DNA from: an uncultured Gammaproteobacteria bacterium
GTDB taxonomy: Bacteria > Patescibacteriota > Patescibacteriia > CAZSQN01
Direction of reading: 5' to 3'
DNA length: 64,000 nucleotides
Assembly: GCA_964609095.1 (NCBI GenBank)
Contig: CAZSQN010000002.1
Location: 88,066 to 152,065 of the forward strand
The position numbers were made by a program, and so were the translations under genes. This document shows positions 7,849 through 30,906 of this stretch, in pieces (the first letter of the stretch is position 1; every line of letters starts with the position of its first letter). Below the pieces are notes generated by a model, which saw only the letters and a program-made list of their open reading frames with translations, was not told the origin of the DNA and searched no databases.

Positions 7849-7969
7849 CCCAGCACATAACTTCTAGTGTGAGATTTTCGCAAATAGCCGATTGTGGAAT
7901 GTATTTTATCAAAATATATTGCGACAATTTATAATTGCGCATTTTTTAATTTAAAAATTATGTGCGGGG
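7849..7969. promoter_or_regulatory. Motif-bracketed intergenic segment: degenerate CCCAGCACATAA (7849-7860) … TTATGTGCGGGG (7958-7969)
   Basis: Inverted copies of the recurrent 12-mer. Confidence 0.5.
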
Positions 7970-7973
7970 TCAA

Positions 7974-9500: not shown

Positions 9501-10514
9501 TTAAATAATAATGTGCGGATTTAACTCGTTTTTGCGAGCGGCAAGCAGAGAAACCCAAGCATCATTTTTCAAATACCAGTCAACTGTCTCGCGCAATCCT
9601 TGTTCAAATTTCTCCCGAGGATAAAGCGGGCTCCAGCCCAATTTCATAATCTTGCTTGCGTCTATGGCATAGCGCCTGTCGTGCCCGGGCCTGTCGGCAA
9701 CATTCATTGCTTTGATTTCTTTGCTCAATATATTTTTTAAAAGAGAAAAAACCTCCAAATTGCTTCGTTCATTGTCAGCGCCGATATTGTAAACCTCTCC
9801 CGGAGCGCCCTTGGCAAGCAATAATTCTATGGCGCTGCAGTGGTCAGCGACATGAATCCAATCACGCACATGCAAGCCGTCGCCGTATATCGGCACGACA
9901 TCGTCTTTAACGGCTTTAAAAATCGTCTGCGGTATGAATTTTTCCGGAAACTGATACGGACCGTAGTTATTGGAACAATGCGTAACAATTACCGGAGTCC
10001 TGAATGTCTGATAATAAGAGCGGCAGACCATATCGCCGCCGGCCTTGCAGGCCGCGTAAGGCATATTTGGAGCGAAAGCGGTTTCTTCCGTGAATTTTTT
10101 TTCATCGTCAAGGCCGAGCGTGCCGTAAACTTCATCAGTTGAAATTTGTATAAATAAAGGAACGTTGCGCTTCTTGGTTGCTTCACAAAGCACTTGCGGC
10201 CCCATGACATTCCCAAAAACAAAATCGCGGAGAGAACCGTGGATGGAACGGTCCACGTGCGTTTCGGCGGCAAAATTAACAATTGCGTCAGGCCGCAGCT
10301 GCTCCACCGCGGAAAAAACAGCTGCCTCGTCGGCAATATCTCCTTTTATAAAGGAATAACGCGGGTCGTCTTCAAAATCGCGCAAATTTTCAAGATTGCC
10401 GGCATAGGTAAGCTTGTCAAAATTCACGACAAACCAATCAACATGCTTGCCTAAAATATGTCTGATAAAATTTGAGCCGATAAACCCGGCCCCGCCGCAA
10501 ACAAGCAACTTCAT
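9501..10514 (-). CDS. rmlB: dTDP-glucose 4,6-dehydratase
   Basis: MKLLVCGGAGFIGSNF…DKLTYAGNLENL… RmlB-type SDR; the ORF-track start (GTG at 10523, 'MRGM') lies inside the 12-mer; the real start is ATG at 10514. Confidence 0.9.
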   Translation of the reverse strand: MKLLVCGGAGFIGSNFIRHILGKHVDWFVVNFDKLTYAGNLENLRDFEDDPRYSFIKGDIADEAAVFSAVEQLRPDAIVNFAAETHVDRSIHGSLRDFVFGNVMGPQVLCEATKKRNVPLFIQISTDEVYGTLGLDDEKKFTEETAFAPNMPYAACKAGGDMVCRSYYQTFRTPVIVTHCSNNYGPYQFPEKFIPQTIFKAVKDDVVPIYGDGLHVRDWIHVADHCSAIELLLAKGAPGEVYNIGADNERSNLEVFSLLKNILSKEIKAMNVADRPGHDRRYAIDASKIMKLGWSPLYPREKFEQGLRETVDWYLKNDAWVSLLAARKNELNPHIII

Positions 10515-10515
10515 A

Positions 10516-10610
10516 CCCCGCACATAATTTATTTAATAATTAGATAAACCGTGTTTTAATCTTTCTATTTTCCCGCACACTACTCATAATAAACAAATTT
10601 ATGTGCGGGG
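10516..10610. promoter_or_regulatory. Intergenic segment bracketed by CCCCGCACATAA (10516-10527) and TTATGTGCGGGG (10599-10610), with a third degenerate copy CCCGCACAC at 10572
   Basis: The left copy abuts the rmlB ATG; the right copy overlaps the HIT stop codon. Confidence 0.55.
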
Positions 10611-11012
10611 TTCTTTACGAATTTTTTTAGCAATCTCCGCCAGCTCATCCTTTTCCGCGGACTGGCCGTGCCAGAGCGCGTGCCCGTCGCCGGGAAATCT
10701 CGGCATGATGTGAAAATGCAAATGAGGAACAATCTGCCCCGCGTCGCGGCCGTTATTTAAACCGAGATTAAAGGCCTCCGCGCCAACCGCTTTCAATATC
10801 TTTGGCGCCAATTTGTGAATTACCGCCATAATCGCGCAGACGTCTTCTGTTTTAGATTCCTCCAAATTCCCGGCATGATTTTTTGCGATCACCAGCGCGT
10901 GCCCGGGATTTACCGGATGAATATCCAAAAAAGCAAATACTTTGTCGTCTTCATATACTTTGTGGGCTGGAATCTCGCCGGCGATGATTTTGCAAAAAAG
11001 ACAGTCGGACAT
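10599..11012 (-). CDS. HIT-family (histidine triad) nucleotide hydrolase
   Basis: HxHxHxx motif in VPHLHFHIMPRF; N-terminal CLFCKI. Confidence 0.85.
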   Translation of the reverse strand: MSDCLFCKIIAGEIPAHKVYEDDKVFAFLDIHPVNPGHALVIAKNHAGNLEESKTEDVCAIMAVIHKLAPKILKAVGAEAFNLGLNNGRDAGQIVPHLHFHIMPRFPGDGHALWHGQSAEKDELAEIAKKIRKEPRT

Positions 11013-17181: not shown

Positions 17182-17385
17182 ACATTAATAATTCCATAGA
17201 TTTCAAAACACTATGATAATACATATTATCATAGTGTGATCCGATCGGGCCATTTTGTTATCTCAATTTTTTACTTTGATTATTCAAAGAATCAAAGTAA
17301 AATATAAAGCGTCCAACAGTAAAATTCTCTTTCTTCAATTCTGCGCTATAGCACGCAATTGAAGATAACTTATTTTTTAAAAAAT

Positions 17386-17410
17386 AAAAACGGCCGTGAG
17401 AGACCGTTTA
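17386..17410. terminator. Weak bidirectional hairpin between convergent genes
   Basis: aaacgg-ccgtgagaga-ccgttt with A/T-rich flanks. Confidence 0.35.
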
Positions 17411-17421
17411 TTTAGCAATCT

Positions 17422-18742: not shown

Positions 18743-19102
18743 TCACCTTTTTATCCTCGAACATGGATGCTGTATAAAAAACTTCTCCCTGGCCTCGGCC
18801 CAATCCTCCACATTCATTCCTTGCTTCATCTCCAAAATAGCTCCATCGCAGCCGGGAGAATGGCAAACTATCCTTGGCCTATGCGCTTCATCTTCAGTGC
18901 GGACAACATTATGTTCGGACAGTTTCTTGCCGCTAACCTCATCCACCTTGTCGGCAATCTGCCGCAATTCGTCGGGGCTTAAGGCCACAAATCCATTAAT
19001 GCATACGGGGCTGGAGATGAACCCGTCCTTATTGATATAGCCGAACGTCTTATCGCCAACAAACACTATCCAACCATTTACTGAACGCGCAATCCGCAAC
19101 AT
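18743..19102 (-). CDS. Hypothetical protein (119 aa)
   Basis: An ORF with RBS aaaaaggagg and an upstream TTGACG-17-TTTAAT promoter. Confidence 0.5.
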   Translation of the reverse strand: MLRIARSVNGWIVFVGDKTFGYINKDGFISSPVCINGFVALSPDELRQIADKVDEVSGKKLSEHNVVRTEDEAHRPRIVCHSPGCDGAILEMKQGMNVEDWAEAREKFFIQHPCSRIKR

Positions 19103-19137
19103 TTCTTCCTCCTTTTTGGCAAAGAGCAGCTGAACGG

Positions 19138-19166
19138 ATTAAAACACAAAATCAGCGCGGCGTCAA
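19138..19166 (-). promoter_or_regulatory. Sigma70-like promoter (TTGACG-17-TTTAAT) for the 119-aa gene
   Basis: Minus-strand reading: TTGACGccgcgctgattttgtgtTTTAAT; lies immediately downstream of 72-bp repeat copy 1. Confidence 0.5.
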
Positions 19167-19180
19167 CCGTCTTTTCGTAA

Positions 19181-19252
19181 ATTAAAAAACGCCCGCTATC
19201 GCACGCAAAATATTGCTAATAACAATTTTAAGCTATAGCTGATTTTTGTTAT
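19181..19252. repeat. 72-bp perfect direct repeat, copy 1
   Basis: attaaaaaacgcccgctatcgcacgcaaaatattgctaataacaattttaagctatagctgatttttgttat; identical to 19908-19979. Confidence 0.9.
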
Positions 19253-19280
19253 TATATTTTTATAATCTCAAACTTAAATA

Positions 19281-19310
19281 AAAAAATCCCCGCTTTTGCG
19301 GGGATTCATG
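19281..19310 (-). terminator. Intrinsic terminator of the 167-aa gene
   Basis: Minus-strand hairpin atccccgc-aaaa-gcggggat followed by T7; a second small hairpin at 19311-19330. Confidence 0.65.
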
Positions 19311-19330
19311 ACGCTCGAAAGCGTCTTACT

Positions 19331-19834
19331 TTATTGCGGACGAACCAAAAGAAACTGACAAGATTCATGAAACGGATAAAAGAGCGAGCGCAACCACAAA
19401 GTTCGTTTTAAATCCTCGCTTCTCACATCTCCACGCTGCATCTGCAAATACGGCACGGCAAATTCACCGCCGGGTCCAAGCCAAACCGAGCCCACGGCGA
19501 CAACCATTTCTTCGGGCTTAAAATCAGGTCGCGTTAAAGCAAGCTCGAAAAGATGATAATATCTTGCGGCGCTGTAGCCCCGCAAAAAATCGCTCGCAAG
19601 GTAGTAAAAGATGGAGCGCGCGGACAATCCCGCAGTAAAATGAAACAAGTCCAAAGCAAAAGTTTCCGAACCCATGCTTCTTTCCGTATCGCCCCAAGCG
19701 GGGGGATCTTGGCTTAACCAGCCATTACATCTGCAGTTTCCAACTTGCTCCAATTCCCGAAGCGTCTGCTCTCTCTTTTTTGAGAAGTCCACAGTAACGG
19801 AAAAAGAGTTAACAATGTAATCCGCAATGCTCAT
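19331..19834 (-). CDS. Hypothetical protein (167 aa), flanked by the 72-bp direct repeats
   Basis: An ORF with its own promoter, RBS (aaagggga) and terminator; no recognisable domain. Confidence 0.55.
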   Translation of the reverse strand: MSIADYIVNSFSVTVDFSKKREQTLRELEQVGNCRCNGWLSQDPPAWGDTERSMGSETFALDLFHFTAGLSARSIFYYLASDFLRGYSAARYYHLFELALTRPDFKPEEMVVAVGSVWLGPGGEFAVPYLQMQRGDVRSEDLKRTLWLRSLFYPFHESCQFLLVRPQ

Positions 19835-19870
19835 TTTTTATTCCCCTTTCGTTGTGCAAAGAACATTCAA

Positions 19871-19899
19871 ATTAAACAAGAAAATCAGACTATTGTCAA
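19871..19899 (-). promoter_or_regulatory. Sigma70-like promoter (TTGACA-17-TTTAAT) for the 167-aa gene
   Basis: Minus-strand reading: TTGACAatagtctgattttcttgTTTAAT; lies immediately downstream of repeat copy 2. Confidence 0.55.
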
Positions 19900-19907
19900 T
19901 CGTTCAT

Positions 19908-19979
19908 ATTAAAAAACGCCCGCTATCGCACGCAAAATATTGCTAATAACAATTTTAAGCTATAGCTGATTTTTGTTAT
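19908..19979. repeat. 72-bp perfect direct repeat, copy 2
   Basis: Identical to 19181-19252. Confidence 0.9.
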
Positions 19980-19985
19980 CTTAAA

Positions 19986-20010
19986 TAAAAAACCTCCGCG
20001 TTAGCGAAGG
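19986..20010 (-). terminator. Terminator of the lytic-transglycosylase gene (hairpin with a G·U pair, then U6)
   Basis: Minus-strand reading: ccttcgc-taac-gcggagg-tttttt. Confidence 0.45.
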
Positions 20011-21080
20011 TTCCAGACAGCTTCAAACTTTCCAAGGTACGCGCGCTCCGCGCGTTCGGGAGCATAGCGCCGGGCAAAAGCATAGCGGTTAAACATGCGC
20101 TGGGCATTGGAGGTGCCCGCGTTATAAGCGGCCGCGACATAAAGTCCGAGATTTAATTCGTTGCCGGAAGCGAGCAATCCCCGCCTGGCCCACGGCGGCA
20201 GGCGGGCGATGATTGAATCAATCACGCAATACATAGCCGCAACAGAATCCTCATGATCCGCCATGGCCGCGAGAAAACTCATCGGCAGCCGCGCGCGCGG
20301 GTAAGCGCGGCGCGTTGCCAAATAGGTTGCCGGCATCATTTGGCTAATGCCGCGCGCGCCGGCAAAACTCCGGGAATAGCGATAGGCATCGCCTTTGTTG
20401 GCGCCGAAGATAACGAGCGTCCGCTGGAGAAACGGAATTAAGCTTTCGCCCCTCTCCCACCGGCTTCCGTCAATATGTTCAACAAAAATCAGTCCTAAAA
20501 CAATATCTCTGGGCACGACTTCAACAACTGATTTGCCGCGGCTTGCCAGCGACGGAACCGCTCTCGTCCGCGCCTCCGCCATAGTCAAAAGCGACCGCAG
20601 ATAATCAAGTCCTTCCGTTCGTAGGACAAGAGTATCCATACCATGGCTCCATGGAACATAAACAACTCCAGTTCCCCTGACATTCCGCCTCAAGGCCAAA
20701 ACAATTCCATTTTCAGGAAAGAGAACTTCAAAATGGGAATTTACGCCGTTGCCCCGCACTTTCCGAATCGCGACACCGGGCAGGCGACTGGCTCCGGAGG
20801 CGTCAACCGGCACGGCCAATATTTCGTCGCCCGTAAGGAGCGCGAGGACGCATCCGTTTCTTGGCGCGCGCTCCCGCCGTAAAAGTTCGCGGGCGCGGCG
20901 CAGATCTTCTTGCGTCGGCCGATCGCGCGATGGCGCGTAGCCCAAATTAGGCAGATGATCAAAAGAGCTGCCGTGCGCCTCACGAGTCAAAAACAGAATC
21001 ACGGCGGCGCCGATAAAAATCAAAAGAACAATTCTTAAAAAGACCATCCAGAACCAGCTGTTTTTCATCCGTTCCTCCAC
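20001..21080 (-). CDS. Membrane-anchored lytic transglycosylase (SLT-domain) protein
   Basis: N-terminal TM; C-terminal …GARGISQMMPATYLA…AAYNAGTSNAQR… SLT-domain motifs. Confidence 0.7.
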   Translation of the reverse strand: MEERMKNSWFWMVFLRIVLLIFIGAAVILFLTREAHGSSFDHLPNLGYAPSRDRPTQEDLRRARELLRRERAPRNGCVLALLTGDEILAVPVDASGASRLPGVAIRKVRGNGVNSHFEVLFPENGIVLALRRNVRGTGVVYVPWSHGMDTLVLRTEGLDYLRSLLTMAEARTRAVPSLASRGKSVVEVVPRDIVLGLIFVEHIDGSRWERGESLIPFLQRTLVIFGANKGDAYRYSRSFAGARGISQMMPATYLATRRAYPRARLPMSFLAAMADHEDSVAAMYCVIDSIIARLPPWARRGLLASGNELNLGLYVAAAYNAGTSNAQRMFNRYAFARRYAPERAERAYLGKFEAVWNLR

Positions 21081-23105: not shown

Positions 23106-24239
23106 CTATAAAATAATTTTATTCCATATCTGTGCTATTCGCGGCAGGGCATAATGCTCCCGCGCTCTTTCTAACGCAGCCCTTCCCATTTCCGCGTCCG
23201 CTTCTTTGGAAAAAAATTCTTCAAACTTGCGCGCCAAAGCTGATATGTTTCCGGCGGGAACCAAAAAACCCGTTTCGTTATTTTTTATAACGGTTCTCAC
23301 GCCCGGCAAATCCGTCGCGATCGCCGCCAGCCCCGAAGCGGCCGCTTCCAAAAGTACGATGCCAAAGGCCTCCGAGCTGTCTATTGACGGAAGAACAAAC
23401 AAGTCCGCCAGATTATAGTACTTTGGCAAATCCGCTTCGCTTGCGGAACCGACGAAAATAGTTCTGGAGTCAATACCTAATTCTTTGGCGAGTTTTTCAT
23501 AAAACGGACGCAGATTGCCGTCGCCGACTATTAACAGGGTATAGGGTAGAGGGTGGAGGGTGGAGGAAAATTTTTTAAATGCATCAATCAAAACAGGAAC
23601 ACCTTTAAAATAGTGGGCACTGTCTAAGCCCCCGACAAAAAGAATGACTTTTTCTTCAGATGAGATTTTTAATCTTGCCGCAAACTCCGCATCACGCGGG
23701 CGCGGAGCAAACCTCTCCGTGTCCACACCAAGAGGAATTTCTATAAATTTATCCGATTGCGCCGCAACCAAGCCCCGAAGCGCGCCGGAATAGGCATAAT
23801 CAAGCGAAGTGACAATAACTTTGCCGGCACGGCCGAGGATTAAAGGCATTAGATATTTTTGGTGCCAGCGAAAAATTCTTCCCAGCAGTCCCTTGCCGCG
23901 CACATCCATATGATAAAAAATAATCAGCCTGGCTTTTGGCCTCATGAACAAAAAAAATTCCGCGGCGCCGAAAAAAGGATAATGCAAAATAACGGCGTCA
24001 AAGCCGCGAATTTTCCATAAAATCTGCGGAACTATGGCCGCGTTTCCATATTTTAAGACCGGCCTTAACCGTGTCAGCCGGTATTTTCCGGAACTTAAAC
24101 CATCCGCTCGGCTGTATAACGGCGAAAAGACCTCTACTTCGTGTCCGGCTTTGGCAAATGCTTCTGCCTGCTCTTTTGCCACCATTCCTATTCCTCCCTT
24201 ATACGGCGGAAAAACCGGCGTCACTATGGCAATTTTCAT
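23106..24239 (-). CDS. Glycosyltransferase family 4
   Basis: MKIAIVTPVFPPYKGGIGMV…; C-terminal EAAASGLAAIATDLPGVRTVIKNNETGFLV; ORF-track GTG 24248 ('MRGM') lies in the 12-mer and the real ATG is at 24239; contains a heptamer tract at 23530-23560. Confidence 0.85.
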   Translation of the reverse strand: MKIAIVTPVFPPYKGGIGMVAKEQAEAFAKAGHEVEVFSPLYSRADGLSSGKYRLTRLRPVLKYGNAAIVPQILWKIRGFDAVILHYPFFGAAEFFLFMRPKARLIIFYHMDVRGKGLLGRIFRWHQKYLMPLILGRAGKVIVTSLDYAYSGALRGLVAAQSDKFIEIPLGVDTERFAPRPRDAEFAARLKISSEEKVILFVGGLDSAHYFKGVPVLIDAFKKFSSTLHPLPYTLLIVGDGNLRPFYEKLAKELGIDSRTIFVGSASEADLPKYYNLADLFVLPSIDSSEAFGIVLLEAAASGLAAIATDLPGVRTVIKNNETGFLVPAGNISALARKFEEFFSKEADAEMGRAALERAREHYALPRIAQIWNKIIL

Positions 24240-24240
24240 A

Positions 24241-24376
24241 CCCCGCACATAATTTCGATATTAAAGTAATTTAGAAAATTTTTTGTTTTAATTTTAAACT
24301 CTATTTATCTATTTCACTGGTCTTAACTTGTTTCCCATCCCGTGAACGCGGGATGGAATCGAAGTTATGTGCGGGG
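24241..24376. promoter_or_regulatory. Intergenic segment bracketed by CCCCGCACATAA (24241-24252) and TTATGTGCGGGG (24365-24376); internal hairpin ccatcccg-tgaacg-cgggatgg (24333-24354)
   Basis: Seen in sequence. Confidence 0.55.
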
Positions 24377-24379
24377 CTT

Positions 24380-25480
24380 TTACCAAAAAATAAACGCTCT
24401 CGCTATAACCCAATACAAAATCAAGAGCGGATTCACGAAATAGAGAACGAAAGGATTTTTAAAATCCTGAAAAAGAATGGCGGGAGTAAAAAGGTCAACA
24501 ATTTCGCAATCGCTCTTTTTTCTGGCTTTTTGCGCCATCTGCCGCGCCTTTAGCAGATTTTTCCAGTTATTCAGAGATAAAAAATATTTATATCCTTTTA
24601 TCTTTTCTTCAAACCATCCGGAGCGCAGAGAAAAAAGCAAAAGTCCGGCTTCGGCCGCCAAAAGCGCCGGCGCAAGCAAAAGCAAGGTCGGCAATTTATA
24701 TAATTTAAACATAACCATAAACCGATTCCGCTCCATCCAGTAATACTTCTTGATGCTGCGCGAAAATTCGTATTTATGATAAATCCAGCTCCTTGGCGCG
24801 AGAATATTTTCATATCCGGCCAATCGCAGCCGCCAGCCCAAGTCCAAGTCCTCGTGATATAAAAATAATTCTTTGTCAAAGAGTCCCATTTCGGAGAGAG
24901 CCGACGCCCGATAGAGAACTCCGGCGCCGGAGCCGTAAGCTATTTTAAAATTTTTTTCAAAAGATATTTTTTCGGCTATCAGCTTTTCAACATCAGATAA
25001 ATTCATTCCGTATCCGCGCGCGTAACCAAATCCCAAAAAATGAATGGCGTTGCCAAAAGAGTTCACGGTGGTTTTGTTATCGTGTAGAAGTATAAGGGAT
25101 TGAATTGACCCTGCTGATTTTGCCTCTTCGGCTAATTTTACGGTTTCGAAAATAAAATTAGGGTCAACTTCCGTATCCTGATTAAGCAGATAAATATAAT
25201 CAAACCCAGCCTCCAGCGCGAGCCGCATGCCGATATTATTGCCTTCGGCAAAGCCCAGATTTTCCTTGTTTTCTATCAAGTTAATTTTAGAAAGCTTTGT
25301 TCCCGACTTCGGCAAAATTTCATTTTTAAAAAAAATTAAACCGTCATCGCTTGAACCGTTATCAATAACAAAAATCTCCGCGTCCTTAGCCGGATAATTC
25401 ATTGCTTCAAGCGAAGCAAAACAGTCGGCTAAATATTGCCGACCGTTATAAAGAAGATAAATGACGGCAACCCGAGGCAT
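24380..25480 (-). CDS. Glycosyltransferase family 2 (rhamnosyltransferase-like) with a C-terminal membrane segment
   Basis: …IFVIDNGSSDDG… and …LLNQDTEVD… (DXD) motifs. Confidence 0.8.
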   Translation of the reverse strand: MPRVAVIYLLYNGRQYLADCFASLEAMNYPAKDAEIFVIDNGSSDDGLIFFKNEILPKSGTKLSKINLIENKENLGFAEGNNIGMRLALEAGFDYIYLLNQDTEVDPNFIFETVKLAEEAKSAGSIQSLILLHDNKTTVNSFGNAIHFLGFGYARGYGMNLSDVEKLIAEKISFEKNFKIAYGSGAGVLYRASALSEMGLFDKELFLYHEDLDLGWRLRLAGYENILAPRSWIYHKYEFSRSIKKYYWMERNRFMVMFKLYKLPTLLLLAPALLAAEAGLLLFSLRSGWFEEKIKGYKYFLSLNNWKNLLKARQMAQKARKKSDCEIVDLFTPAILFQDFKNPFVLYFVNPLLILYWVIARAFIFW

Positions 25481-30026: not shown

Positions 30027-30785
30027 TTATTCTTTAAGTTGTGAAGCGGTTTGATTTGCCAATTTCTCTTCAAGCTCCTTAATCGCGGCCTGATACGGCT
30101 CATGGCCGGGCATAATCAAAGCAAGCTTTTTATACATCTGAAGCGCCTCGGCAAACTGTTCTGTTTCCACAAGATAAGAAACATAATCAGCGGCCAATCT
30201 TAAAACCTCCTGACCGACTAAAACGGCCAAACCCTTTTGGTAAAACGCCCTTATCTCTTCCGGCGTCTTTTTAAGGTCGTAGCGCATCAGCTCTGCTCTC
30301 GCGATGTATATTCCGGCTTCTCCGGGATTGCTTTTGATGGCTTCAAGATAATATCGGTCGGCTCGCTCAAATTCTTTTAAATAACGAAGAACATTGGCGG
30401 CATTCAAAAATGGCAAGTAATTTCTATCGCCAAATTTTTTTATAGCTTTGTCATAAACGTCCAGCGCGTTGCGGTAAAACACGGCTTCAGTGGTTGCGTC
30501 GGCAACGCTTTTCCATCTAAAACCGGCTGATAAATACATTTCTAAATTATCTTCATCCTTTTTAAGGAGCTTATCGCCTTCTTTGGCCGCGCTATAAAGC
30601 TCGGACCACGCGGGATTATTTTTTATTTTTGCCGCGACGCGCCGCTCTTCTTTGAAGGCGGAGGCAATGTTTAGCGCGGGCGGGAGGAGCAGGATAAGCG
30701 CGAGAAGCAACGCGAAAACAACTAAAATCCGGCGGCGTTTCCCGGCAAAAAAATTATTAATTTGAGCAACAAATTGATTGTTCAT
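30027..30785 (-). CDS. TPR-repeat protein with N-terminal TM anchor
   Basis: TPR-like helical repeats; ORF-track GTG 30794 ('MRGM') is in the 12-mer and the real ATG is at 30785. Confidence 0.65.
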   Translation of the reverse strand: MNNQFVAQINNFFAGKRRRILVVFALLLALILLLPPALNIASAFKEERRVAAKIKNNPAWSELYSAAKEGDKLLKKDEDNLEMYLSAGFRWKSVADATTEAVFYRNALDVYDKAIKKFGDRNYLPFLNAANVLRYLKEFERADRYYLEAIKSNPGEAGIYIARAELMRYDLKKTPEEIRAFYQKGLAVLVGQEVLRLAADYVSYLVETEQFAEALQMYKKLALIMPGHEPYQAAIKELEEKLANQTASQLKE

Positions 30786-30786
30786 A

Positions 30787-30906
30787 CCCCGCACATAATT
30801 TATTTAATACTAAATAGTCAAACAACCTATATTTTAATTGTTATTTTTAACATGTCTTAATTCTTTAATCAAATAAACATGAAATATAAACAAATTATGT
30901 GCGGGG
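30787..30906. promoter_or_regulatory. Divergent intergenic segment bracketed by CCCCGCACATAA (30787-30798) and TTATGTGCGGGG (30895-30906)
   Basis: The 27 bp CATACCCCGCACATAATTTATTTAATA is identical to the sequence upstream of rmlB (10511-10537). Confidence 0.55.

Follow-up and report, generated by a model that had tools for sequence, protein, structure and literature searches.

A two-copy 72-bp intergenic repeat with a Patescibacteria palindromic unit upstream of two orphan genes, and its possible link to short PaaX-family proteins

We analyzed a stretch of 64,000 nucleotides (the window) from an uncultured bacterium placed by GTDB in Patescibacteriota (contig CAZSQN010000002.1, positions 88,066 to 152,065), in which two orphan genes are each preceded by one copy of a 72-bp direct repeat, hereafter the 72-mer. 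The analysis assigned the window to contig JACOZF010000008.1 of a Candidatus Uhrbacteria metagenome-assembled genome (MAG), GCA_016181485.1. All genes around the repeat are encoded on the minus strand. In the direction of transcription, a HAD hydrolase gene is followed by a gene for a conserved 359-aa protein with a weak SLT-like match, by the terminator of that gene, by copy 2 of the 72-mer (19908–19979), and by the promoter and coding sequence of a 167-aa orphan protein (open reading frame 19331–19834). The terminator of the 167-aa gene is followed in turn by copy 1 of the 72-mer (19181–19252), by the promoter and coding sequence of a 119-aa orphan protein (open reading frame 18743–19102), and by genes for a PNP/UDP phosphorylase and a cytidine deaminase (cdd).

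A first-pass annotation made from the letters of this stretch had reported the repeat, and comparison of the two copies bore this out: they are identical at 72 of 72 positions, with a period of 727 bp. The boundaries of the 72-mer are sharp, as identity falls to 91% over 89 nt once the flanks are counted. On the minus strand, each copy reads ATAACAAaaatcAGCTATAGCTtaaaaTTGTTAT-TAGCAATATTTT-GCGTGCGATAGCGGGCG-TTTTTTAAT. Its 34-nt palindromic half and its 26-nt GC-rich half each occur exactly twice in the 64 kb when up to 3 mismatches are allowed, and none of 100 shuffled sequences gave any match to either half. A search for more copies, proposed by the annotation, returned only these two in the window. 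With both of its modules (described below) required, no further copy was found in the window, in the loci of relatives, in L048 (7.4 kb further left of the window, which brings the sampled part of the source genome to 71 kb), in GTDB representatives, in JGI metagenomes or in IMG/VR; the 72-mer was also absent from 208 kb from 17 GTDB relatives.

Independent evidence comes from Logan unitigs that belong to this strain and were built from six or more read sets. Those that carry the 359-aa gene stop exactly 30 nt (k-1) into the 72-mer, and those that carry the 119-aa gene start with its last 30 nt. Breaks inside the 72-mer at both outer flanks imply a true repeat longer than k, present in at least two contexts in the reads. 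An assembly artefact, in which the 167-aa segment came from elsewhere and was threaded in through the repeated 72-mer, is hardly credible to us. Such an error is conceivable because a de Bruijn graph cannot tell a segment flanked by two repeats from one repeat plus a separate circle of repeat and segment, and the 167-aa protein is recorded only from the NCBI MAG, not from Logan contigs of the same samples. However, an independent organism (L001) has the 167-aa gene directly upstream of a 117-aa orthologue of the 119-aa gene on one contig, and the unitig breaks fit the assembled arrangement. Moreover, the shortest Logan contigs encountered were about 1.2 kb long, so a unitig of roughly 715 nt may simply not be indexed.

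On the coding strand, each copy is preceded at 9–29 nt by an intrinsic terminator. That of the 167-aa gene (19284–19307, minus strand) has a 10-bp stem with 6 GC pairs, followed by a T-run; this terminator and a ribosome-binding site had been assigned to the gene by the annotation, and both are present. The terminator of the 359-aa gene (19989–20014, minus strand) overlaps the last codons and the stop of that gene, which ends at 20001, and is conserved in the related loci L008 and L009. The sigma70-like promoter announced after each copy was also found, 8 nt after copy 2 for the 167-aa gene (19871–19899, minus strand; TTGACA 19899–19894, 17 nt, TTTAAT 19876–19871) and 14 nt after copy 1 for the 119-aa gene (19138–19166, minus strand; TTGACG 19166–19161, 17 nt ending in TGn, TTTAAT 19143–19138). 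Both fit a sigma-70 promoter with an extended -10 (TTGACR-17-TTTAAT, two occurrences) and align with their counterparts in L001, L010 and L015. They were read from the sequence, since the consensus promoter scanner requires A at position 2 of the -10 and hence listed neither.

These two promoters belong to a paralogous promoter and 5' untranslated region (5' UTR) pattern, TTGACn-N8-GATTTTsTkGTTwAAT ... TGTTCTTTG ... AAAGGAGG, that exists in only two places in the 64 kb; a search with TTGACN8GATTTTNTNGTTWAAT hit only 19871–19899 and 19138–19166. The promoters are about 70% identical to each other, compared with 100% for the adjacent 72-mers, which indicates that the promoter duplication is old and the 72-mer copies are young. 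The same promoter and 5' UTR are kept upstream of the 117/120-aa orthologues in L001, L010 and L015, all without a 72-mer. The suggestion of a promoter-bearing cassette therefore fails, as the 72-mer contains neither promoter, the two promoters share only about 70% of their positions, and relatives devoid of the 72-mer conserve them. Within the 5' UTRs (19100–19137 and 19835–19870, and those of L001, L010 and L015), a TGTTCTTTG(C/T) box is conserved between the -10 and the ribosome-binding site, and GATTTT is conserved inside the promoter spacer of the 167-aa and 119/120-aa genes. The box or the spacer GATTTT could be the actual site of shared control of these genes, independently of the 72-mer.

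PNP identity among the closest relatives is 82–85% and that of the 359-aa protein 62–67%, and the 72-mer is absent from the corresponding slot in L001, L008, L009, L010–L014, L015 and L037. In L008 and L009, nothing lies between the 350-aa gene and PNP other than a terminator, the palindrome CCCCTATT-N16-AATAGGGG and the promoter of PNP. L015 has between them a 120-aa orthologue of the 119-aa gene and a 78-aa gene. L037 has no slot genes; its 350-aa gene is directly followed by the next conserved gene, with PNP and cdd also absent. L001, the only other contig with the 167-aa gene (77% identity), has this gene followed by a terminator, a promoter and the 117-aa orthologue; the gap between the two genes measures 123 nt there versus 228 nt in the window. 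In L010–L014, the end of an IS30-type transposase is followed by the promoter, the 120-aa gene and PNP, and all the contigs break in the insertion sequence (IS). The first 100–220 nt of these contigs encode the C-terminus of the IS30-family transposase (…LNNRPRKRLNYKTPNEV…), directly upstream of the 120-aa promoter, and the break is common to three NCBI metagenome assemblies and two Logan contigs. The position of this IS end means that the slot is also a target of a real IS.

Judging from these arrangements, the slot between the conserved 350-aa gene and PNP/cdd is a hypervariable insertion hotspot. Among the relatives compared, the 119/120-aa gene is patchy, the 167-aa gene rarer and the 72-mer confined to this strain; the locus shows a variable slot between conserved genes gaining orphan genes, each with its own promoter and terminator. 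The annotation had proposed looking for relatives without the segment 19253–19907. That segment, with the 167-aa gene, is indeed lacking in L008, L009, L015 and L010, but a simple insertion between two repeats does not follow, as L001 has the 167-aa and 117-aa genes side by side without a 72-mer. Strong selection on a shared operator, the other explanation offered for the perfect identity, does not hold either: close relatives lack the element altogether, so recent copying at the DNA level explains the 72/72 identity and operator selection cannot. From these comparisons the 72-mer is most likely a strain-specific two-copy intergenic module, recently copied as DNA. As the sole cause, gene conversion with the promoters and the shared terminator tail TTTTTTATTTAAG as anchors was rejected, because the sequences between the 72-mer and its nearest shared anchors are unequal in length (0 vs 20 nt to the terminator tail, 8 vs 14 nt to the -35), which makes simple flank-anchored conversion unlikely.

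Two modules can be recognized inside the 72-mer. Module 1 (19947–19978 in copy 2, 19220–19251 in copy 1) is a palindromic unit matching TAACAA-N6-GCTATAGC-N6-TTGTTA. The 34-bp palindrome reported by the first-pass annotation is present, although 'near-perfect' overstates its symmetry: the 7-bp outer arms ATAACAA/TTGTTAT and the centre AGCTATAGCT are separated by mostly mismatched stretches of 5+5 positions, and about 78–81% of all positions are complementary. Module 2, GCGTGCGATAGCGGGCG (minus strand, 19918–19934 in copy 2 and, with the same sequence, 19191–19207 in copy 1), holds a degenerate second GCTATAGC-type core, GC(G/T)ATAGC, 37 bp from the first core and followed by a T-run. Its segment TTGCGTGCGATAGCG matches TTGCGTGCTATAGCG at 17344–17358. 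Measured from the predicted start sites of the orphan genes (19864 and 19131), the palindrome centres are about 98 and 104 bp upstream and module 2 is about 62 and 68 bp upstream. At such distances, and with a phase difference of 6 bp, the palindrome is not a classical promoter-overlapping operator.

GCTATAGC was found 4 times in the window, against 0.6 expected, and all four occurrences are intergenic and centre longer palindromes. One related palindrome, TTCAATTctgcGCTATAGCacgcAATTGAA (17330–17365), lies downstream of the cdd terminator and has TTGCGTGC(T/G)ATAGCG in common with the second half of the 72-mer; its orthologue in L008 shows mirror-image changes in both arms. Another, CCCTATTACTTGCTATAGCAAGTAATAGGG (772–801), is a perfect 30-nt palindrome 21 nt after the stop codon of a gene. 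The L001 contig ends in a further GCTATAGC-centred palindrome. GCTATAGC is missing altogether from the 208 kb sampled from 17 more distant GTDB relatives. The 772–801 palindrome shares its outer arms, CCCTATT...AATAGGG, with palindromes at about 2010–2045 in L008 and about 1190–1225 in L009, and the centres differ, being GCTATAGC in the window and CGCGACCGCG in L008/L009. The L008/L009 palindrome lies directly against the -35 of the PNP/cdd promoter, which makes it a candidate operator for the nucleoside-salvage genes. Three successive AT-rich palindromes occur in addition to the real cdd terminator in the convergent gap between a 734-aa gene and cdd (17182–17421), at 17208–17237 (perfect, 14+14), 17269–17302 and 17321–17376, none with a downstream T-run.

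The unit belongs to a family that extends beyond this genome. A search with TAACAA-N6-GCTATAGC-N6-TTGTTA against JGI and Hainich metagenome contigs returned 10 stretches, one of which (L042) could be a match by chance, as it has the look of an ordinary GC-rich terminator, and a local CTATAG scan of the matched loci added 5 more degenerate copies. The resulting family pattern is ATA-TAACAA-N6-GCTATAGC-N6-TTGTTA-TAT, with 17 copies in nine metagenome loci, and both window copies have the exact TAACAA, GCTATAGC and TTGTTA blocks with 6-bp spacers. The ATA/TAT flanks, which the search did not force, are conserved as well: A stands at -17 in 32 of 38 half-sites and on both sides in the window. In each half-site, the TAACAA and GCTA blocks are 11 bp apart, centre to centre. 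The window units are intergenic and lie about 10–30 nt after a terminator, a layout repeated in L039 and L044, and on other contigs the density is 1–3 units per 40–100 kb (roughly 1 per 25–50 kb).

Across 18 units, the two halves covary as mirror images, with 82% of cells paired compared with 69% in shuffles, 14 pairs changed on both sides, and a covariation score of 0.39 versus 0.15 in shuffles, a value that none of 500 shuffles reached. The inner N6 stretches in the largest subgroup (L038–L040, L044 and L047) and in the window are conserved and not complementary. An identical perfect 32-nt palindrome, TAACAATTATTTGCTATAGCAAATAATTGTTA, was seen at four Hainich sites (L041 1845–1876 and 2539–2570, L045 4615–4646, L046 1686–1717), on contigs of 9x and 45x coverage, each copy with its own complementary outer arms of 7–15 nt. 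This looks like a unit placed in the loop of pre-existing hairpins, or like a palindrome growing outward. Neither the motif, nor the unit family, nor the link to PaaX/Cas2-like genes described below was found in Rfam or in the searchable literature.

The flanking of one gene by two palindromic repeats raised recombination as an explanation, in which a circular or donor segment, consisting of the 167-aa gene with a single 72-mer, entered a 72-mer already present by site-specific or homologous recombination, with the 34-bp palindrome as crossover site and the gene still excisable. The direct-repeat geometry with its 727-bp period fits this, as do the self-contained segment (promoter, open reading frame and terminator), the absence of the 167-aa gene from most relatives, the 13-8-13 layout shared with the core sites of tyrosine recombinases, and the recurrence elsewhere of unit pairs around a small gene. 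Even so we consider it quite improbable, as L001 joins the same segment to the 117-aa promoter without any 72-mer, and the Pfam-annotated gene tables contain no recombinase or integrase from -7445 to 29834 of the window. The loxP and FRT sites resemble the palindrome in their 34-bp length, 13-8-13 layout and placement as direct repeats around a segment. In contrast to them, its arms are only 9/13 symmetric, its palindromic centre gives no polarity, and the family conserves the centre and varies the arms, the reverse of recombinase sites. Integron attC cassettes are also comparable, with small orphan genes separated by imperfect palindromic repeats of about 60–120 bp in a variable slot, but the segment here has its own promoter and terminator, and the repeat lies upstream rather than downstream of the gene. 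Moreover, the outer arms read (A/T)(G/A)ATAAC / GTTATTA instead of the attC signature RYYYAAC/GTTRRRY, and no integrase is encoded in the -7.4 to 29.8 kb surveyed. An attC, dif/Xer or loxP-like site was therefore rejected, as the signatures do not match and no recombinase lies nearby. Miniature inverted-repeat transposable elements (MITEs) and Correia-type elements, miniature repeats that modulate promoters and terminators, were compared as well, being small, non-coding, precisely bounded intergenic repeats that can adjoin promoters. A MITE was rejected, because terminal inverted repeats are absent (the ends ATAACAAAAATC/ATTAAAAAACGC match at 7/12 A-rich positions only) and no target-site duplication beyond AT was seen.

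At other loci, units of the family were found on both sides of genes related to PaaX. In L041, two units bracket a gene for a 195-aa protein. In the orthologous trio L039, L044 and L047, greA is followed by one or two units, a gene for a 176-aa protein, a unit overlapping the stop of that gene, and lysS; in L039 and L047, the second of the units that precede the paaX-like gene has its parallel in module 2 of the 72-mer. The 195-aa and 176-aa proteins match PF20803 (PaaX_M, the central Cas2-like domain of PaaX) with E values of about 1e-21, and also match Cas2 and TIGR02277 weakly. The proteins of the two lineages are 31–33% identical to each other, and their sources are Patescibacteria/Parcubacteria MAGs, with one protein annotated as 'Transcriptional regulator, PaaX family'. 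A profile of these proteins gave no match against PDB sequences, and nothing relevant was found in the literature on PaaX with Cas2 or with Patescibacteria. The spacing between units around the paaX-like gene, 575–694 bp, compares with 727 bp in the window.

The orthologous units upstream of the paaX-like gene are identical at 38–40 of 40 positions, though the PaaX-like proteins are 82–86% identical, which argues for purifying selection on these units. Pairing alone does not explain their conservation, since the N6 spacers are conserved yet non-complementary in L038–L040, L044 and L047. In the JGI group, the unit overlaps promoter-like hexamers, TTGCTA in its centre and, 16 nt further, TATAAT right after the TTGTTA arm, which point toward the paaX-like gene or lysS. 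An apparent unit over the putative promoter of the paaX-like gene is the usual layout of an autoregulated repressor; RAYT genes, among repetitive extragenic palindromic (REP) sequences, are likewise bracketed on both sides by a dispersed palindrome. In the window, a promoter within the unit itself was rejected, as the hexamers at the -35 and -10 positions of the JGI group are poor (CAGCTA, TTAGCA).

A role of the repeat as RNA, be it as a back-up terminator, as a 3'-end stabilizing hairpin for read-through transcripts or as a small RNA, would fit the short distance (9–29 nt) from an intrinsic terminator to either copy on the coding strand, the presence in module 2 of a weak hairpin with U6 behind it, and the symmetry of the covariation. 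It would also fit the unit of L045, which lies between convergent genes with A7 on one side and T7 on the other, as a bidirectional terminator would. Nevertheless, the folding energies of the 72-mer RNA on either strand were no better than those of shuffled sequences (z -1.5 to +0.15). Rfam 15 gave no match at the gathering threshold across the 64 kb, with sub-threshold matches (E<1) amounting to terminator-driven noise, and no tRNA or tmRNA genes were found. The module is not preceded by a promoter, the largest subgroup conserves its N6 parts without their being paired, and units elsewhere overlap start-proximal promoter hexamers. We therefore regard an RNA role as very improbable.

The explanation that we put forward, tentatively, is that the 72-mer may be a recently copied module whose core, the Patescibacteria unit, would most likely be a recognition site of short PaaX-family proteins, placed upstream of two paralogous promoters in the hypervariable slot. 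The 72-mer would have been copied recently into the terminator-to-promoter gaps upstream of these promoters. The recognizing protein, with an N-terminal winged helix and a Cas2-like domain, would be encoded elsewhere in the genome; the spacing of TAACAA and GCTA by about one helical turn in each half-site would suit a dimer, and the protein could recognize either the duplex or an extruded hairpin. Once bound, the module would lie shortly behind the preceding terminators and about 60–105 bp ahead of each start site, where it could serve the 167-aa and 119-aa genes jointly as an upstream control or insulator element. That a PaaX-like protein binds in this organism, and that binding has any regulatory effect, is inferred; such an effect would have to come from an upstream site, given that the unit does not look like a promoter and is centred about 98 and 104 bp from the starts. 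The co-regulation by a palindrome-binding factor foreseen in the first-pass annotation has thus gained a candidate, as the family brackets PaaX-family genes elsewhere, but co-regulation itself is better supported by the paralogous promoter and 5' UTR that are unique to both genes in the 64 kb.

Several observations weigh against a PaaX recognition site. No PaaX-like open reading frame was found in the 64-kb window, in the extra 7.4 kb of L048 or in the loci of relatives, and the independent associations with PaaX-like genes number only two. The unit in the window is not promoter-like and overlaps no promoter, with its centres at about -98 and -104 in different helical phase, and relatives carry the same promoter without it, so the unit is dispensable. 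The strong mirror covariation and the perfect Hainich palindromes with copy-specific arms fit a hairpin or a mobile element better than a plain duplex operator. Finally, the motif is unlike the PaaX box of E. coli. Autoregulated winged-helix operators, such as those of PaaX in E. coli and Pseudomonas, are similar in having a palindrome at or overlapping the regulator's own promoter, and the central Cas2-like domain (PF20803, E about 1e-21) is common to both. In contrast, the proteins described here are half-size (176–195 aa) and lack the C-terminal domain of PaaX, units also occur at the 3' end of genes, and the unit in the window lies about 100 bp upstream of the starts with no regulator gene nearby.

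The main alternative, rather unlikely but serious, is that the unit is a REP-like selfish or neutral palindrome, spread or kept as a hairpin by the PaaX/Cas2-like protein encoded by the genes bracketed at other loci; it would have landed twice in 'safe' terminator-to-promoter gaps and exert no control over the orphan genes. The copies are identical up to sharp edges, beyond which the sequences on either side differ; they vary in presence among close relatives, and they are homogeneous within a genome and divergent between genomes. The strong mirror covariation, the four Hainich copies with an identical 32-nt core and differing complementary outer arms, and the bracketing of a gene on both sides, as in RAYT layouts, point in the same direction. 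In this the units recall the REP/BIME (bacterial interspersed mosaic element; REPIN) and RAYT systems of Proteobacteria, which consist of short imperfect intergenic palindromes, often just after terminators, that are homogeneous within a genome, divergent between genomes, and bracket one gene on both sides. However, the bracketed gene here encodes a PaaX-family winged-helix/Cas2-like protein (PF20803, weak Cas2) and not a Y1 (IS200-like) transposase; no Y1 transposase is associated with the units, and Cas2-fold proteins are not known to mobilize repeats. Within the 71 kb sampled, the copy number is low, at two copies and two distantly related palindromes. The units lack a GTAG-type 5' signature, and there are no terminal inverted repeats or target-site duplications at the ends of the 72-mer; the units are instead built of a conserved centre and TAACAA arms with variable 6-bp spacers. 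Moreover, units at orthologous positions are conserved between genomes whose proteins are 82–86% identical, which argues for function and stability rather than mobility.

A broader idea, doubtful and drawn by analogy, is that the units and the short PaaX (winged-helix/Cas2-fold) genes between them might form a repeat-protein partnership found in Patescibacteria alone, like that of REP and RAYT but with a Cas2-fold protein at its base. This protein would recognize the units in hairpin form and copy or maintain them, the units would seed promoters, operators and boundaries around small orphan genes of variable slots, and the 72-mer pair on either side of the 167-aa gene would be a fresh footprint. 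Patescibacteria, or the candidate phyla radiation (CPR), have tiny genomes with few recognizable regulators and many orphan genes, and to our knowledge almost nothing is known of their cis-regulatory DNA. The present results supply ATA-TAACAA-N6-GCTATAGC-N6-TTGTTA-TAT as a concrete motif to search for, and the short PaaX/Cas2-like proteins as its candidate partner family. If the link between protein and motif were true, it would be one of the first regulons or repeat-protein systems in the CPR.

The two genes next to the repeat are orphans in the strict sense, as the annotation had called them. Among 5.8 billion clusters, one homologue was found for the 167-aa protein (P0002, 77% identity) and three for the 119-aa protein, which has a conserved C-terminal C-x4-C...HPC motif. 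Neither protein matched Pfam, PHROG or PADLOC. The AlphaFold2 (AF2) model of the 167-aa protein had a pLDDT of 42 and was unusable for fold assignment; that of the 119-aa protein reached a pLDDT of 75, with no PDB fold match at E<0.03. These structure and profile searches had been suggested by the annotation. A diverged PaaX-like protein was rejected for both the 167-aa and the 119-aa protein (hhalign probability <1%), and so was a phage or defence origin, given the lack of PHROG and PADLOC matches and empty viral scans. The 119/120-aa family has an invariant C-terminal block, RP(K/R)(L/I)VCx(S/T)xxC...EM(K/R)xGM(N/S)VEDWAEAREKF...HPC. In L001, a second, partial paralogue of the C-terminal half of this family, interrupted by a stop, lies directly after the 117-aa gene (1037–1270).

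Other dispersed elements were noticed in the window. A second intergenic repeat, ACCCCGCACATAATTT / AAATTATGTGCGGGGT, occurs at 7945–7970, 10510–10538, 10583–10611, 24235–24263, 24357–24381 and 30781–30809; two copies are identical at 29 of 29 positions, and several form inverted pairs that span the whole intergenic spacer. On the coding strand, the ATG of glycosyltransferase-type genes marks the end of its 3' arm (GTGCGGGGTATGAA), and a hairpin would thus bury the ribosome-binding site and the start codon. Moreover, a conserved 40-nt hairpin, ATCCCGCyAAC...TAATAAGTGAATrGCGGGAT, was found just after the L27 gene in the window (about 605–645) and between the 350-aa terminator and the 120-aa promoter in L015 (1920–1960). 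From its sequence, this hairpin may be another small dispersed element or an RNA motif.

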